DNA of 64,000 nt, from the NCBI GenBank assembly GCA_014905635.1, contig CM026547.1:4774001-4838000 (forward strand). The letters run 5' to 3'. The notes under the pieces are model-generated. The model worked only from the letters and a program-made list of their open reading frames with translations. It ran no database searches and was not told the origin of the DNA. The stretch comes from Scenedesmus sp. PABB004. Lineage: Eukaryota. Position numbers and translations under genes: made by a program. Position 1 is the first letter of the stretch. Each line of letters opens with the position of its first letter. Below, one piece after another: positions 31,345 through 43,072 of the stretch.

Positions 31345-34300
31345 TCAGAACGCGGTGCGGCTGCGCACGGCGGCGGTCATGCGGTCGATCACGTCGCCCA
31401 CGGGCAGCGCGCCGAGGTCTGCGCCGCCGTACAGGCGCACCGACAGGCTGCCGGCCTCGGCCTCCTTGGCGCCGATGACGGCCATGACCGGCGTCTTGGC
31501 GCGCTCCGCGGTGCGGACCATCTTGGCGATCGACGCGCGCTCCATGACCTGCACGCGCAGGCCAGCGCCCCGCATGCGCGACGCAACCTGCGCGGCGGCG
31601 GCCGGCGGCCGGCGGCCGGGCGCGGGGCGGAGCGGTCGGTGGCCGCGCGAGCGGCGGCGGCGGCGGCGCGGGCGCGCGCGGCGCAGGGCGCAGCAGGCGC
31701 GGCGCGGGGCGTGCTGTGCGCGCCGCGCGCCTCGTTGGCGTAGGGCACGACCGCGTCGTTGACCGGCATCAGCCGCGCGTGCACGGGCGCGAGCCAGAGC
31801 GGGAAGGCGCCCGCGTAGTTCTCGACCAGGATGCCGAAGAAGCGCTCGATGCTGCCCAGGATGGCGCGGTGGATCATGATCGGGCGCTGCTTCGCCGCGC
31901 CCGCGTCGGTGTAGGTCATGTCAAACCTGGCCGCGCCGCCGCGCCGCCGCGCACACGCCGCGGGGCGACGGGGCGCGCTGATGAGCAGGGCGCCCGCGGC
32001 GGCGCGGCGCGGCGCGCGGGCGGCGGCGGCGCGGGCGCGCGGGCGGCGGCGGCGCGGCGGCGGCGCGCCGCGTGGTCACCGCTGCGGGAGGTTGAAGTCG
32101 AGCTGGATCGTGGAGCACTGCCACTTGCGCCCGATCGCGTCCTGGATCTTGATGTCGATCTTGGGGCCATAAAAGGCGCCGCCGCCCTCGTCGACGACGT
32201 AGGGCCAGCCCTTGGCGCCCAGAGCCTTGACCAGCGCGGCCTCGGCGGTGTCCCAGATCTCGTCGCCGCCGACGTGCTTCTCCGGCCGCGTGGAGAGGTT
32301 GACCTCGTACTGCGTGAACCCAAACGCGCTCAGCACCTCCTGCACACCCACAGCAGCAGCGCCGGCCGCGGCGGCGGCGGCGGCGGCGCGGGGGCCAGGG
32401 GGTGAGCGCATGCGCGGACCGCGGGGCGCCCGTGCCGCGCGCCGCCGCGCCGCCGCGCCGCGCCGCGCCGCGCCACGCCGTGCCGCGTGTGGGCACGCCC
32501 CCCCGGCGCGCACCTCCACGAGGTCCAGCACGCCGCGGATCTCTCCCTCGATCTGGTCCGGCAGGCAGAAGATGTGCGCGTCGTCCTGCGTGAAGCCGCG
32601 CACGCGGAACAGGCCGTGCATGGTCCCGCTGCGCTCGTACCTGCGCGCAGCGCGGCGGCGGGGGCGGGGTGGGGCGCGGCGCGGCGGCGGGGCCGCACGG
32701 CACTGCGTGCCGCCGCGTGCTGCCGCTGCGTGCTGGCGCGTGCGGCGCCGCGGTGCGCCGCACCGGTAGACGGTGCCGAGCTCTGCCCAGCGGAGCGGGA
32801 GGTCGCGGTAGGAGTAGTGGCCGTCGTTGAACATCGCGACGTGGAAGGGGCAGTTCATGGGCTTGAGCTGGTACGCCTCCTCCTCGACGGTCATGGAGTC
32901 AAACATGCTCTCGCTGTAAAACTCGAGGTGCCCGCTCGTGACCCAGAGGTCGCGCTTGGCGATGTGGGGCGAGTACACGAGGTCGTACCCGCGGCTCAGG
33001 TGCAGGTCCTTCCAGAAGCCCTCCAGCACGTGGCGCACGATCGCGCCCTTGGGGTGCCAGAACACCAGGCCACCGCCTGCGCCGCGGCGGCGGCGGGGCG
33101 GTCAGTCGGCGGCGGCGGCGGCCGCCGCGGCCGCGGCGGCGGGCAGGGCGGCGCCGGCGCCGCGCCACAGCGCCGCCGACGCCGCAGCCAACGCCCTCGC
33201 CCGCGTGCGCGGCGCCTGGGAGCGCATGCGCGGTCTCACCCGCGCTCTCCTGTATGCTGAACAGGTCCAGCTCCGCGCCCAGCTTGCGGTGGTCGCGCCG
33301 CGCCGCCTCGGCCTTGAGCGTCGTGTACGCCGACAGCTGCGCCGCGCTCTCCCAGGCCGTGCCGTAGATGCGCTGCGCGCGTGCGTGGAGGCGGCGCGGG
33401 GCGCGCGGGGCGGCTCAGGGCGGGCGCTGCGCTGCGCGTGCTGCGCGCGCCGTTCCGGGCCGGCGCCGGGCGGGCGCCGGCGGTCAGCACGCGGGGCGGC
33501 GCCGGCGGTCCGCGCCTGCAGCATGGGCTTGGTCTCGTCGCCGCGCCAGTACGCGCCGGCGACGCTCTCCAGCTCAAACGCGTCGGCGGGGATGTCGCCG
33601 GTCGTCTCCACGTGCGGGCCGGCGCAGAGGTCCCACCAGTGCGCGGGGTGGTCGGTCTCACCGATGTGGTAGATCGTGATCGCCGCGGCCGGGTCGCGCG
33701 CGGTGATGGACTCCAGAATCTCCAGCTTGTAGGGCTCGTTGATCGCACGGATGCGCGCCGCCGCCTCCTCCGCGCTCACCTGCGGCGCGGGGGCGGCGTC
33801 GGCGGCGCGCCGCGCGCCCCAGCTGCGCGCGCCGGCTGCGCGCCCCGGCCGCCGCTGCTGGTCCGCCGCACGCCGCCGCCGCCGCGCGCGCGCCCGCTCG
33901 GCCCCGCGGCCGGCCGCACCTCCTCGCGCACGAAGGGGAGCTTCATTTTGATGATCTTCTGCATCTCCTTGCGGATGGCCTTGAGCTCCTTGTCGCTGAG
34001 GGGCGTGGGGAGGTCAAAGTCGTAGTAGAAGCCGCGCTCAATCCAGGGCCCGATCGTGACCTGCGCGTCCTTGTGCAGCCGCTGCACCGCCATCGCCATG
34101 ACGTGCGCGCACTGCACGACGGCAAGCGCGGCACGGCCCAGCAGGCGCGGGCGGGCGGGCGGGCGGCGGCAGCGGGGTGTGGGATGCTGCCGCGGCGGGG
34201 CGCGGCCCACCAGTGCGCCGCGGCGCGCCGCGCCGGGTGACCGGCCCGGCCAGTGCTGAGCGCGCGCCGCGCCCGGGTGCGCGCCGCACAGCCGCCGCGC

Positions 34301-34720
34301 GCCGCGGCGCGGCGCCGCTGAGGAGCCCGGCCGCGCCCGCCCCGTCCCGCGGCCGCGCCGACTCACGCTGTGCCGGATGCGCAGCAGGCGGTCCGACTCG
34401 TCGCTCGTGGGCAGCGGCACGATCTCCGCCGCGCCTGCCTGCGCCGCCGGCGGCGCGGCGGCCTCGGCGGCCTCCACCGCGCCCGCCGCGGCGCGCAGCT
34501 GGAAGATGTTCTTCCCGGCCAGCCGCGGCGCGGCGCTCGACGCGGCGCCGCGCCGCGCCGCCAGCCATGCCGCCGGGGCGGCGGGCGCCAGGGCCTCGCA
34601 CGCGCCCGGCCCCGGGCGCCGGGACAGCGCGGCGGCGGCGGCGCGGCCCAGCAGCCGCGCGGCGGCGCGGGAGGTCATGCGGCTGCTGCTGCTGCCCAGT
34701 GCCGGCGCGTGGGCGCGCAT
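31345..34720 (-). CDS. thrS: Threonyl-tRNA synthetase, organellar; multi-exon
   Basis: [97 protein letters not shown]-terminal targeting peptide. Confidence 0.97.
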
Positions 34721-35305
34721 TGCGGCGCCTCGGGCGAGTCCACGAGCTGCTTGCGAGAGGCGCGCGCCACTCAGGCGCTGCGCATGGCGCGGCTGCCAGG
34801 CGGGGGCGCGAGCACCACACTCTGCTGCTGCGGGGCTGGCGGTGCGCGGGGGCAGACGCTCGGCGCCGCGACTGGCTTCCTGGGACGTGTGAGCGACCCG
34901 CCCGCCAATTGGACTGCTGAGCGGTCGGCGCGCGCAGACCCCGCTCCGCCGCTCCCGCTCCCGCTGCGCCGGTCGCCCCCAGCCCGCTGCCGGCCACGCA
35001 GTCCAGCGGCACCGGGAGCGGCGGGGGCGAGCGACGAGCTCGGCGGCCGCGCGGTCTGGCGGCGGCGGCGGCGTAGCCACGCGCGACCGGTCGCGCGCGG
35101 TGCCACGCCGCGGCCGCGGACGACTGCGGGGGGGGGGGGGGGGGGGGGGTTAAATTACCCGCGCACACGCTGCTCGGTGCGCAGGAACGCACTGTTGTTG
35201 TTGTACACGCGCGCGCGCGACGGCTGCAAACTCAGCCGCGCGCGGCGCGAGCGCGCGCCGCGAGCACGCGCCGCGAGCGCGCCGCGGACCGTCCCGCGCG
35301 CCGCC

Positions 35306-35558
35306 TCACAGCTCGTCCTCGGCGCGCAGGTACTCGCCGACGTCGGCCTGGTGCAGCACGACGATGCCCGACGGCTCCATGCCGCGCGCCTCGTTGGTCG
35401 ACTTGGCGGTGAGGCCGAAGCCGAGCGGGATGTCGGCCATCGAGTACACCACGACGCCGGCGTACGCGGGCGTGCTCTCGGTGATGCGCCCAAGGCCCGA
35501 CTTGAGCACGTGGTTGCCGTACAGGTACTGCATCTCCGCCGACGGCTTCAGCCACACC
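35306..35558 (-). CDS. NIP7: NIP7 60S biogenesis factor, C-terminal PUA exon only (N-terminal exons not found)
   Basis: [63 protein letters not shown]; begins after a CGCAG acceptor. Confidence 0.88.
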
Positions 35559-35716
35559 TGCGGCGCCAGCGAGGGAGGGGCGCGAGCGAGCGAGCGGGCG
35601 GTGGGCGGCGCGGCGCGGCGCGGCACGGCGGCAACAGGCGGCGGGCCAGCCCACACACGCGCGCACGGCAATGGCAACGTCAACGGCAGGCGCGCCACCG
35701 GCGGCGGCAGCGCGCG

Positions 35717-35808
35717 GCGGCGCCCTCGGCTGGAGAAAGATGCAGTCGTTCACGGGTGAGTCAGGTTGAAGACTGAAGGTGATCTGGTTCTTCGTCATCG
35801 GGCGCCGC
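35717..35808 (-). ncRNA. Box C/D snoRNA with two guides antisense to LSU rRNA
   Basis: Perfect 9-bp terminal stem GCGGCGCCC/GGGCGCCGC; C box AUGACGA (35792-98); D' CUGA (35761-64); C'-like GUGAACGA; D box CCGA (35726-29). Guides are complementary to UUGAAGACUGAAG and UGGAGAAAG, recalled as adjacent in LSU rRNA. Confidence 0.8.
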
Positions 35809-35827
35809 GCCGCCCGCTGCACGCGGC

Positions 35828-36035
35828 CGCCAAAATTCGCCCTCCCGCGGCGCCGCCCGGCCAAAACCCGGCCCCGCCCGGCCAAAACCCGGCCCCGCCC
35901 CGCCAAAATTCGCCCTCCCGCGGCGCCGCCCGGCCAAAACCCGGCCCCGCCCGGCCAAAACCCGGCCCCGCCCGGCCAAAACCCGGCCCCGCCCCGCCAA
36001 AATTCGCCCTCCCGCGGCGCCGCCCGGCCAAAACC
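35828..36035 (+). repeat. Compound minisatellite with A (31 bp) and B (21 bp) units sharing a GCCAAAA core, order ABBABBBA
   Basis: A = cgccaaaattcgccctcccgcggcgccgccc; B = ggccaaaacccggccccgccc. Confidence 0.9.
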
Positions 36036-36432
36036 GACCTCGACACGCTCCTCCGCAGGCGCGCTGCCCTCGCAGCCAACGCCGGCAACAGCAGGCCTCC
36101 AGGCCTCCATCGGCCCCCAGGCCTCCCAGGGTGCGCGGCAGGCGCTCTCGGCGACGGCCCGGCCTCCAGGCGCCTTTCCGGCAGCGGCGCGGCCCTGCGC
36201 CGGGCCCCGGCGGCGCCGCGGCGCGGGCGAGCGCGCCAACCGCCGCGCTGCTGCTGCTGCCGCGGCCGCGCCGCACGGCCCGCGACGAGCGGGCGAGGGC
36301 CGCCAGCCGCGGTGCTGTGGTCGTCTCGTGATCGGGCCCCCGCGCCACCACCGCGGCGGCCACCGCCGCCGCCGCAACCGCCGCCGCGCGCAGGCCACCG
36401 GCGCGCGTGCGCGAGCGCTGCCGTCGCGCGGT

Positions 36433-36734
36433 ATGTCGGACGCCGAGGAGCTCCCCAACCCGGTGCCCGTGATCCTGGGCATCGTGGTCGGCATCGTCTT
36501 GCTGGTCGTGGGCGTGAACGTCACGCTCTGGTGGATCGCGCAGCAGGTGCGCGGCCGCGCCGCGCGGCCGCACGGGCGCGGAGCGCGCACTGCGCGGCCC
36601 GCGCGCCGACGCGCGCCCGCCCCCGCGCCCGCGCCTGTCCGAAGAACATGCCCGTGGTGAAGCCCAAGCGCGTGGGCGCGAAAAAGGCGAAGCGGGAAAA
36701 GCTGAGCCAGGGGATGCAGGTGCTCGGCGACTGA
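36433..36734 (+). CDS. S1FA: S1FA-family small protein (TM helix plus basic tail); 2 exons, intron 36547-36644
   Basis: MSDAEELPNPVPVILGIVVGIVLLVVGVNVTLWWIAQQ|NMPVVKPKRVGAKKAKREKLSQGMQVLGD matches the plant S1FA pattern N..L..YAQKNLPP.KKK.VSKKK.K.E.LKQG. Confidence 0.8.
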
Positions 36735-37096: not shown

Positions 37097-38332
37097 TCAG
37101 GTCGCGGCCGTGCCCGCGCCGCCGCCCGCGCCGCCGCGCTTGGCCGCCTCCGCTGCTGCCTTGTCGGCCTCGACCTCCGCCACGAGCGCGTCGAGCTCCG
37201 CCTCGGGCAGCAGGCGCAGGCCGGACGGCTCCATGACCGCGATCTCGATGTTCTTGCTGCTGCCCTCCACCGTCTCCATGAGCGCCCGGATCGCGAGCTT
37301 CACCGTGTCGCGCCCCGACGTCTCCACGTACTGCTTCTCAAGGAACTCACGGATCTGCGCGCGCGCGCACGCAGGGAGAGAGGGGGAGCGTGGGCGGCGC
37401 GGGCGCGGGCGCGAGGGCGCACGCTGGCGCCGCCGCCGGCCGCGCCGCCGCCGCGGGGCGCCGCCGCGCGGGCGCGGGGCGCGCCGCCGCGCCGCTGCAC
37501 CGTCTTGCTGTTGCGCCCGATCGCGTTGGCCTTCCACGCGCTGAAGGTGCCGCTGGGGTCGGTCTGGTACAGCGCGGGCGAGCCGTCGGGGTTGAAGCCC
37601 ACGATGAGCGTGGAGATGCCAAACGGGCGCACGCCGCCGCTCTGCGTGTACTTTTGCTGCACGCCGGCGATGAACTTGGTGATGTAGTCCACCGACACCG
37701 CCTCGTCGAGCGTGAGCCGGTGGCTCTGCGCCTCCACGCGCGCGCGATTGACCAGCACGCGCGCGTCCGCGGTCAGCCCCGCAAACGCGAGGCAGATGTG
37801 CTCGTCGAGCGACACGATCTTGCGCACCGTGCGCGCGTCCTGCAGCCGCGCCGTCGACTTGCGCTCCACGCCTGCGCGCGGCGCGGTGCGATGCGAGCGG
37901 CGCGGGGCGGGAGCGGCGCGGGAGCGGCGCGTCGGCGGCGGCAGCGGCGTGGGGCGCGCGCCCAACCTCCCCACCGCTGCCGCGGCGGCTGCCGCTGGCG
38001 CACGGCTGCCGGCACCGCCGGCGGGGCCACCGGCGCGGCTGGCTGGCTGGCGCCGCACGCGCGGCGGCCGCGCGTGCGCGGCGGTTGCAGCAGCGGCGCC
38101 GCACCGAGCACGATGGTGTCGGTGCCGCGCACGCCGACCGCCAGCGCGCCCTTGCGCACAGCCTCCAGCGCGTATTCCACCTGGAACCTACAGGGCCGCA
38201 GCGGCGCGGCGGGCCGGGCGCCGTGGGCCACGCGAGGGCGTGGGGCGTGCTGATCCCCCGCCGCCCCGCCCCGCGCGCTCACAGGTGGCCGTCGGGGCTG
38301 AACACAGTGATGGCCCGATCATAGCGCGCCAT
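37097..38332 (-). CDS. PSMA7: 20S proteasome subunit alpha-4 (alpha type-7); multi-exon
   Basis: [85 protein letters not shown] on the minus strand at 36961-65. Confidence 0.97.
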
Positions 38333-41989: not shown

Positions 41990-43072
41990 ATGCTGCTGCA
42001 GAGGTGCGCGGCAGTGGTCGGCGGCGGGCCGTTGCACGCGCGCGTCTCACGCCGCGCCCGCAGCCCTGCCCGCAGCTCGATGCCCCGGCGGGTGCGCCTC
42101 GAGCCGGCGAGCTTGATTAATGAATCTGATCAGTCGCGGGGCGGCGCGCTGCGCATCACCACCGGGCCGGCCCACCACCGCGACGCCCAGGCCGCTGGGC
42201 TGGCCTGGTACGCCACCCTGCCGGCCGCCGGGGACCGCGGCGCGGCGGCCCTGGCAGACATGGGCCTCGTCGCGCACAGCCCGTCCGGCGAGGGCAACCG
42301 CTGCTGGGCGCGCGCGCTGGCGGCGGCCGCCGCCCAGCGGGGCAACGGTAAGCTGTGCGGCGTGGACTGCCGCGCCGCGTGCGCCGCCGGCGGGGCTGCG
42401 TTCGAGGCCGCCGTCGAGCAGCTGCTCGCGCTGATGGTCGGGGTCTGGCGGCTCTGCAAAGAGCAGGTGCGGCGCCGCCGCGCGCGGGCAGCTCGGCGCG
42501 GCGCGGCGAGGCCTGCGCCGGCCGCGCGCTCGCGCTCGCGCTCGCTGCAAGGCCCGCCGCGCTTGCACACACTGCCCGCCGCCGCCGCTGTTGTGCGTGC
42601 GCCACAGGCCGAGCCGGACAGCGGGCTGCTCAAGCTCCTCACCGGCGCGATCTCGTCAGCGAGCAACGGCGAGATGCTCACCGACGAGGCGGTCGGCATC
42701 GCCGCGGCGGCGCTGCTCGGCGAGCCGGTCATGGTCGTGCGCCACGCCGACGAGCGCGTCACCGCGGCGGTCCACTTCCCGCCCAACGCCATGCCCAGCC
42801 CCGTCGAGGTCGCCGCCACGCGCGAGGTGACGGCGCCCTGCGCGCTGTGGGTGGAGCGCGACCACTTCAGCGTGCTGCAGGCGCAGACCGGCAGCGGGGC
42901 GCGCGTGTTTGGGCTGTTTGACGGGGCCGTCAGCATGCTCGGCCACGGCGTGTACGCCGCGGACGTGCTCATCTGCGCCGAGGCGGCCGTCGTGCGCGCG
43001 CGCGACGCCGACGGTGAGCGGCGGGCGCGCGGGAGCAAGCGCGCGGGCCGGCGCTTTACAGCAGCGCTGTAA
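41990..43072 (+). CDS. Hypothetical protein with a divergent OTU-like cysteine protease domain; introns 42004-42075 and 42467-42607
   Basis: SPSGEGNRCWARALA (cf. GDGNCLFRAL), EAVGIAAAALLGEPVMVV, LWVERDHFSVL (cf. HY..L); frame-preserving canonical introns. Confidence 0.55.
   Translation: MLLQRCAAVVGGGPLHARVSRRARSPARSSMPRRVRLEPASLINESDQSRGGALRITTGPAHHRDAQAAGLAWYATLPAAGDRGAAALADMGLVAHSPSGEGNRCWARALAAAAAQRGNGKLCGVDCRAACAAGGAAFEAAVEQLLALMVGVWRLCKEQVRRRRARAARRGAARPAPAARSRSRSLQGPPRLHTLPAAAAVVRAPQAEPDSGLLKLLTGAISSASNGEMLTDEAVGIAAAALLGEPVMVVRHADERVTAAVHFPPNAMPSPVEVAATREVTAPCALWVERDHFSVLQAQTGSGARVFGLFDGAVSMLGHGVYAADVLICAEAAVVRARDADGERRARGSKRAGRRFTAAL

Follow-up and report, generated by a model that had tools for sequence, protein, structure and literature searches.

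The window analysed here, a 64,000-nt stretch of the Scenedesmus sp. PABB004 genome, very likely contains, judging by its sequence, a box C/D snoRNA gene on the minus strand (35717..35808), and this element is a copy of one that lies intact in the last intron of NIP7 elsewhere in the same genome. We propose that the two copies belong to a green-algal family of box C/D 2'-O-methylation guides hosted in that intron, whose conserved job, we are confident, would be the methylation of A1451 of the large subunit (LSU) rRNA via the D' guide. The explanation as a whole, in which this conserved guide has more likely than not been joined by a guide for A1464 and the window copy is a silent duplicate, we regard as probable. 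The mechanism itself is textbook: at the intact locus the RNA would be made as part of the NIP7 transcript, freed when the intron is spliced out and shortened to about 80 nt, and would associate with Snu13, Nop56, Nop58 and fibrillarin, as the known pathway would have it. A preliminary description of the DNA had proposed a double-guide box C/D snoRNA within a NIP7 intron; the RNA class, the targets and the conservation in NIP7 introns have held up, whereas the double guide is not conserved and the window has no intact host intron.

Architecture of the element

The element is closed by a 9-bp terminal stem, whose 5' arm (35800..35808) and 3' arm (35717..35725), like all parts of the element, are on the minus strand, and it would yield a mature RNA of about 80 nt. 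From the 5' end, the stem is followed by a variant C box, AUGACGA (35792..35798), which aligns with the C boxes of the relatives described below, by a 13-nt D' guide (35766..35778), which is the family's conserved guide, and by a clear D' box, CUGA (35761..35764). A putative and divergent C' box, GUGAACGA (35746..35753), was placed by its position, and an 11-nt D guide that includes one G-U pair (35731..35741) precedes the variant D box CCGA (35726..35729), recognized by its sequence. The stem is present in the minimum free energy fold and none of 200 shuffled sequences folded as well (z = -3.76), while the GC content is 63% in the 100-nt bin that holds most of the element (35700-35799), as against 80% and 83% in the flanking bins. 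The AT-richer 92-nt island originally described, with its 9-bp stem, boxes and guides, is therefore present in all its parts on the minus strand.

The C and D boxes each depart by one change from RUGAUGA and CUGA and keep their GA cores; the C' motif, divergent here, also varies among the relatives. The variant D and C' boxes count against our explanation, as does the fact that the D guide forms only 9 consecutive Watson-Crick pairs. AUGACGA and CCGA, correctly described earlier as variants, are not unusual in green algae: the same pair occurs in Ot-CDsno61 and Ot-CDsno93 of Ostreococcus tauri, with about 500 and 2300 TPM (PMC7671301). Because these two RNAs are expressed, the variant boxes are no argument against function, nor are they novel. 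The Ot-CDsno set and the Chlamydomonas CrCD set of Chen et al. (2008, as given in PMC5122169), the closest known intronic box C/D snoRNAs of green algae, are also similar in size, box layout, terminal stem and location in introns of ribosome-biogenesis genes. As anticipated, standard models miss the RNA: searching the window with Rfam produced nothing at the gathering score, relaxing the threshold to E<=10 brought up nothing beyond chance-level hits near the element and the intact intron, and the family is absent from that database.

Chance was gauged by counting 13-nt rRNA complements that stand one base before C(U/C)GA in the window and in 20 shuffled windows; there were 2 in the window compared with a mean of 0.1 per shuffled window. 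The second of these matches (about 42112-42129, plus strand) is a perfect complement to small subunit (SSU) rRNA followed by one base and then CTGA. As a snoRNA candidate this match, at 42126, was rejected, having no clear C box or stem, and it is probably due to chance.

Predicted targets in the host rRNA

The LSU rRNA of the host carries the complementary segment that had been predicted, the 22-nt target being matched exactly in 5 rDNA copies of its own genome and the reversed control in 0. In a numbering that uses our own start on one rDNA unit, with four intron-like inserts removed (3339 nt, positions being relative), the D' guide pairs over 13 of 13 Watson-Crick positions with LSU 1448-1460, which places A1451 at D+5, and the D guide pairs with LSU 1461-1471, which places A1464 there. 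These are the two adenosines named earlier, now computed on the host's own LSU rRNA. Both duplexes are the best matches in host rRNA at their respective boxes, and at neither box was an SSU duplex of at least 8 nt found in host rRNA.

The second target had been equated with human 28S A2388, the SNORD68 site, and the comparison bears this out. The A of the U24 sites is host position 1426, and A1464 lies 36 nt after the U24 C site, host C1428, just as A2388 lies 36 nt after human C2352 (PMC6124571). By eye, 20 of the 22 bases of the published A2388 primer agree with the host from 13 nt downstream onwards (PMC6124571), and, provided that no indel intervenes, spacing and primer match make A1464 the SNORD68 site. 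In human, A2388 is a genuine Nm site of fractional occupancy (PMC5027482).

For A1451 the family yields a precise prediction, namely a chlorophyte-wide rRNA methylation site beside the helix 47 region. An equivalent Nm is not known from human or yeast. The Arabidopsis map gives 1459, 1460, 1479 and 1518 in this region (PMC8053127), the tomato and tobacco maps resemble it (PMC11542601) and the Dictyostelium map gives 1685, 1686, 1689 and 2132 (PMC8817022), with no equivalent of A1451 among these positions. Arabidopsis Cm1479 sits in H47 (PMC11542601).

The intact NIP7 locus and the truncated duplicate

A second copy of the element, identical at 91 of 92 nt, lies at G000:C1:3634579-3634670 (L002 1508-1599), and these two copies are the only matches to the D' guide in the genome. 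This copy is situated in intron 2 of NIP7 (L002 intron 1249-1758), a complete and spliceable intron of a three-exon gene whose only complete copy is found at G000:C1:3633881-3635081, 1.17 Mb from the window copy. That gene is the likely source of the RNA. The NIP7-intron location originally assigned to the element thus applies to the intact locus; the window copy lies in a 5'-truncated duplicate that has no 5' splice site.

The duplicate spans 818 bp (35013..35830, minus strand; 811 of 818 columns identical, 99.1%) and comprises intron 2 of NIP7 (3' half only), exon 3 and the DNA that follows, copied from about G000:C1 3634557-3635370 and inverted in the window. It begins 22 nt before the stem, ends about 290 nt past the stop codon and differs from its source by 3 substitutions in about 814 nt and by 4 gap columns, the single substitution within the element falling in the C-D' spacer (C at window 35787, T at the intact locus). 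The 3' splice site and exon 3 are kept, the latter as an orphaned last exon of NIP7 that encodes the UPF0113 PUA domain (35306..35557, minus strand), while the NIP7 promoter and the 5' splice site are missing, as are exons 1-2, which occur nowhere but at the intact locus. Two database proteins that are 98-100% identical to the orphan exon bear a Scenedesmus label. We propose that a DNA-level duplicate was captured beside a dispersed satellite and in the process lost the promoter, the first two exons and the 5' splice site; a retrocopy was considered and rejected, as it is made unlikely by the retained intron sequence and by a junction without poly(A). The truncated copy illustrates a duplication route for intronic snoRNA genes.

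The window copy, a recent duplicate, is probably a silent passenger. It might instead be a second active snoRNA gene, whose transcription would start in the satellite or between the neighbouring divergent S1FA-like and threonyl-tRNA synthetase (ThrRS) genes and whose RNA would be trimmed to its mature form by exonucleases, no splicing being needed. Its boxes, both guides and its stem are intact, the lone substitution lies in an unconstrained spacer, and it is located upstream of ThrRS on the same strand and head to head with the S1FA-like gene. So few substitutions have accumulated over the whole duplicate, however, that this intactness requires no selection, and together with the loss of the 5' splice site and promoter this leads us to consider an active second gene unlikely.

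An assembly artefact, that is, a chimeric join at the satellite with only the intact locus being real, is still less probable and in our opinion hardly credible. One junction is a tandem repeat, two or more of the four gap columns fall in homopolymers as is typical of read error, and the metagenome contigs that match perfectly agree with the intact locus. Yet the three substitutions that tell the copies apart are outside homopolymers, the right junction lies in unique sequence, and other satellite arrays likewise bear copied edge pieces. The sequencing runs matched to the stretch were two DNA metagenome runs with small shares and included no RNA run; three short contigs from metagenomes reproduce the intact locus without a single difference across L002 1387-1709, at a depth too shallow to test the window copy.

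Conservation in NIP7 introns of green algae

Scanning metagenomes with the D' guide and its box returned at least 120 loci and a viral scan 3; the 123 loci listed are a partial sample of relatives that contains no close relative able to test the D guide. Most matches among the loci listed are chance or bacterial repeat (118-119 of 124 matches of the 18-nt pattern). NIP7 is present in 4 of the 123 listed loci (L067, L072, L096 and L098), all of which have C/D boxes, and all 4 carry the guide in an intron that occupies the host's exon junction, in keeping with the suggestion that the RNA would be conserved in NIP7 introns of other chlorophytes. In a NIP7 tree the host groups with Chromochloris and Monoraphidium (Sphaeropleales), L067 and L096 fall in Chlorophyceae outside the host group, L098 joins Coccomyxa and L072 is placed on a prasinophyte branch; NIP7 identity among the five green algae is 62-80%.

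When a C-like box, a D-like box and 5 bp or more of stem were demanded as a fixed rule, 5 of the 124 matches passed, these being the four NIP7 loci and L056, while L062, which was picked by eye, narrowly fails it and folds with a 7-bp terminal stem. The terminal stems measure 6-10 bp in five relatives, and their arm sequences differ in every case yet pair; L096 and L056 have canonical C and D boxes. Since the search itself dictated the guide sequence, independent evidence comes from intron position, boxes and stems alone. The expected conservation of boxes and guides in relatives is accordingly borne out for the D' guide, but none of the 6 relatives has the D guide.

These data also bear on the notion that the element is no snoRNA, being instead an AT-rich intronic insert that arose by chance or from rRNA. 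The 18-nt pattern by itself gives many chance and bacterial-repeat matches in metagenomes, as described above, and the double-guide pattern has a single match in prokaryotic genomes, which lacks a C box and which we take to be chance. Against such an origin stand the occurrence in the same NIP7 intron of five green algae with boxes and co-varying stems, and the order of the guides, which is opposite to that of a simple antisense rRNA copy and has boxes in between. Positional conservation largely refutes this idea, and we consider it extremely improbable.

The family is apparently unlisted and shows deep positional conservation in Chlorophyta. Rfam searches of the six related loci identified neighbours (U36a, U18, snoR12-like and Z105-like RNAs) and not the NIP7-intron snoRNA, and no NIP7 relatives were found in viral contigs. 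A model, R1, built from sequence alone and applied to 99 of the 123 loci and the window found no new member and is circular, with training sequences scoring 44-60 bits and the rest at most 27.5. L056 and L062 carry the same D' guide without NIP7, in snoRNA clusters beside U18-, snoR12- and Z105-like RNAs according to Rfam; by eye, the gene whose introns hold L056 is ABC-F-like. Both seem to come from non-green eukaryotes, and they may be homologous or convergent. The L072 NIP7 locus holds two U36a copies and, in the last exon, two repeated introner-like inserts, which we take to be introners of the Micromonas type.

A putative, lineage-specific second guide

Complementarity at both boxes was as reported in the preliminary description, but the D guide should be viewed as lineage-specific and putative, given its absence from all six relatives. 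None of the 4 algal relatives forms a duplex longer than 8 nt at the D box when scored against host rRNA, which was used in place of their own. In the same scoring the D' duplex extends to 15 nt in L072 and L067 (with two G-U pairs in L067) and to 18 nt in L098, while L056 has a 10-nt complement to LSU 1464-1473 that overlaps the D box. Because the relatives have no D guide, the family is best described as a single-guide RNA for A1451, to which the D guide is a lineage-specific addition; in the host lineage, the D-side spacer would have become complementary to the rRNA segment that directly follows the D' target.

The 9 Watson-Crick pairs reported for the D guide are confirmed, and the duplex can be extended to 11 nt (9 Watson-Crick pairs, one G-U and one further Watson-Crick pair). 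Among 200000 shuffled D-side spacers, 198 gave a 9-nt match no more than 50 nt from the D' target and 5501 gave one anywhere in rRNA. Between the D guide and the D box there is exactly one base, the spacing expected of a methylation guide. In vitro, duplexes of 9-10 bp are methylated best and those longer than 10 bp poorly by fungal RNPs (PMC7229835), for which reason the 13-bp D' duplex must fray or shorten. Were each duplex to span no more than about 10 bp, the two could occupy a single rRNA strand, joined by a 3-nt link.

On balance we lean slightly towards the D guide also directing methylation of A1464, as its register and pairing suggest. The competing idea, to which we give somewhat less credence, is that of a single-target snoRNA in which the D-side complement only helps the RNP to dock on, or open, the rRNA beside A1451, leaving A1464 unmethylated. 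The D guide's want of conservation fits such an accessory role, as do the other ways in which relatives pair with the downstream segment (L072, L098 and L056) and the finding that extra pairing beside the target in yeast, often by the second guide region, boosts methylation up to five-fold (PMC3116282). Still, counted upstream from the D box, the first paired base is exactly position 2, which is the guide register; accessory elements seldom have this placement, those of yeast not being adjacent to a D or D' box with one exception (PMC3116282); its 9-10 bp are a length well methylated by RNPs, and the predicted base is methylated in human. The family offers a compact case of guide turnover, one guide being fixed across Chlorophyta and the other free to gain a target, possibly converging on a human site.

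Relation to described snoRNAs

The D guide predicts the equivalent of the LSU adenosine targeted by human SNORD68 (HBII-202), A2388 (PMC6124571). The other SNORD68 target is 18S U428 (PMC4288182), whereas the algal element forms no SSU duplex of 8 nt or more at either box, and the conserved algal guide points to a different base, so that the likeness is convergent at most. Homology to SNORD68 was rejected, there being no Rfam match at E<=10 and only the LSU-equivalent site in common.

Several RNAs approach the same rRNA stretch. The guide of Chlamydomonas CrCD18 overlaps it, with CAGTCTTCAA in common (PMC5122169), but CrCD18 uses its D guide and places host C1446, five bases upstream of A1451, at D+5. 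Plant snoR147, which is assigned to Arabidopsis Cm1479 (PMC8053127), marks the equivalent of host C1446 by the D+5 rule. The D' guide of Ot-CDsno64 overlaps the segment too, and differs in having 25S A1363 as its target, which is host A1458 (offset 95 from the U24 sites) and lies between our two sites, and in being hosted by a cullin gene (PMC7671301). As in the present element, yeast snR75, snR76 and snR69 have a second rRNA complement directly beside the main target (PMC3116282); the algal complement differs from these extra pairings in its exact guide register before the D box. Taken together, LSU 1446-1466 (host numbering) is a 20-nt stretch targeted at differing bases per lineage: C1446 in plants and by CrCD18, A1451 by the NIP7-intron family, A1458 in Ostreococcus, A1464 in human and possibly A1466 by CrCD06-5.

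The 131 rows covered of the Ostreococcus tables (PMC7671301) list no NIP7 host and no such guide, and the Chlamydomonas CrCD set of Chen et al. (2008), to the extent reproduced in PMC5122169, has no entry with the D' guide; that a Chlamydomonas ortholog has already been described seems to us doubtful. Full-text literature searches revealed no description of a NIP7-intron snoRNA, none of the terms sought is present in PMC11014333, and a full-text search for the guide strings together with snoRNA retrieved one paper, concerning a Toxoplasma probe against an rRNA fragment. In Mamiellales, a C/D motif without a consistent host gene has been reported (PMC12218528).

All this could be combined into one far-reaching claim: that an undescribed family has resided in one NIP7 intron since the prasinophyte/core-chlorophyte split, with guide-sharing RNAs in two non-green eukaryotes, and marks an LSU adenosine unmapped in plants and Dictyostelium; that its lineage-gained second guide independently recreates human Am2388, so that one RNP would use its two active sites to read 24 nt of rRNA without a break; and that capture linked to the satellite has only recently produced an intron-free second copy of the gene. 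As a joint proposition we think this unlikely to hold in full.

Surroundings of the duplicate

The duplicate abuts, via a shared GCGG, a GC-rich satellite array with periods of 21, 73 and 94 nt (35827..36035), and longer related arrays occur on six other contigs among the 39 of 77 candidates scored. On C24, the piece bordering an array (one of the set L012, L013, L015 and L018) matches window 37515-37547 exactly, presumably an exon of a proteasome alpha subunit; on C11, some 155 bp at the edge of an array come from the vicinity of the C17 array. Because two arrays thus carry edge pieces copied from near another array, the satellite is suggested to be a mobile repeat with templated capture at insertions.

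The insertion site lies between two genes that stand head to head. A two-exon S1FA-like gene (36432..36734, plus strand) is transcribed away from the snoRNA copy; its second exon matches Pfam PF04689 at 21.4 bits (cut-off 21) and its first exon has no match. Downstream of the duplicate is the 5' part of a ThrRS gene (33000..34678, minus strand), which continues below 33000. A database protein, P0010 (window 33000-35557, minus strand), joins the orphan NIP7 exon to ThrRS, skipping the stop codon, and another, P0004, runs intact NIP7 into the next gene; the fusion is most likely an annotation error and the read-through a probable annotation artefact. The truncated copy accounts for the former as a probable mis-annotation.

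Other RNAs in the genome

The same NIP7 intron contains a second box C/D candidate (L002:1313-1383, plus strand; G000:C1 about 3634384-3634454) with a C-like box, AGGACGA, a D box, CCGA, and 15 of 15 pairs with LSU 350-364, which places A353 at D+5. It is single-copy, has an unremarkable fold, lies outside the duplicate and matched neither Rfam nor the published supplements. Searches of the same genome with the U18 model and with U24-type and snoR39BY-type patterns found nothing. The host U14 (L144:1501-1626) has canonical boxes and scores 61.7 bits against an Rfam cut-off of 64; a C/D-like sequence about 110 nt downstream (L144 about 1735-1830) likely forms a snoRNA cluster with it. The rDNA unit of 11.7 kb (L008/L009, G000:C17:533000-551800) holds inserts of 1059 and 467 nt in the SSU and of 446 and 450 nt in the LSU. 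By eye these look like group I introns, the longest having an ORF-like stretch, and the rDNA spacer presumably contains a 5S-like gene.
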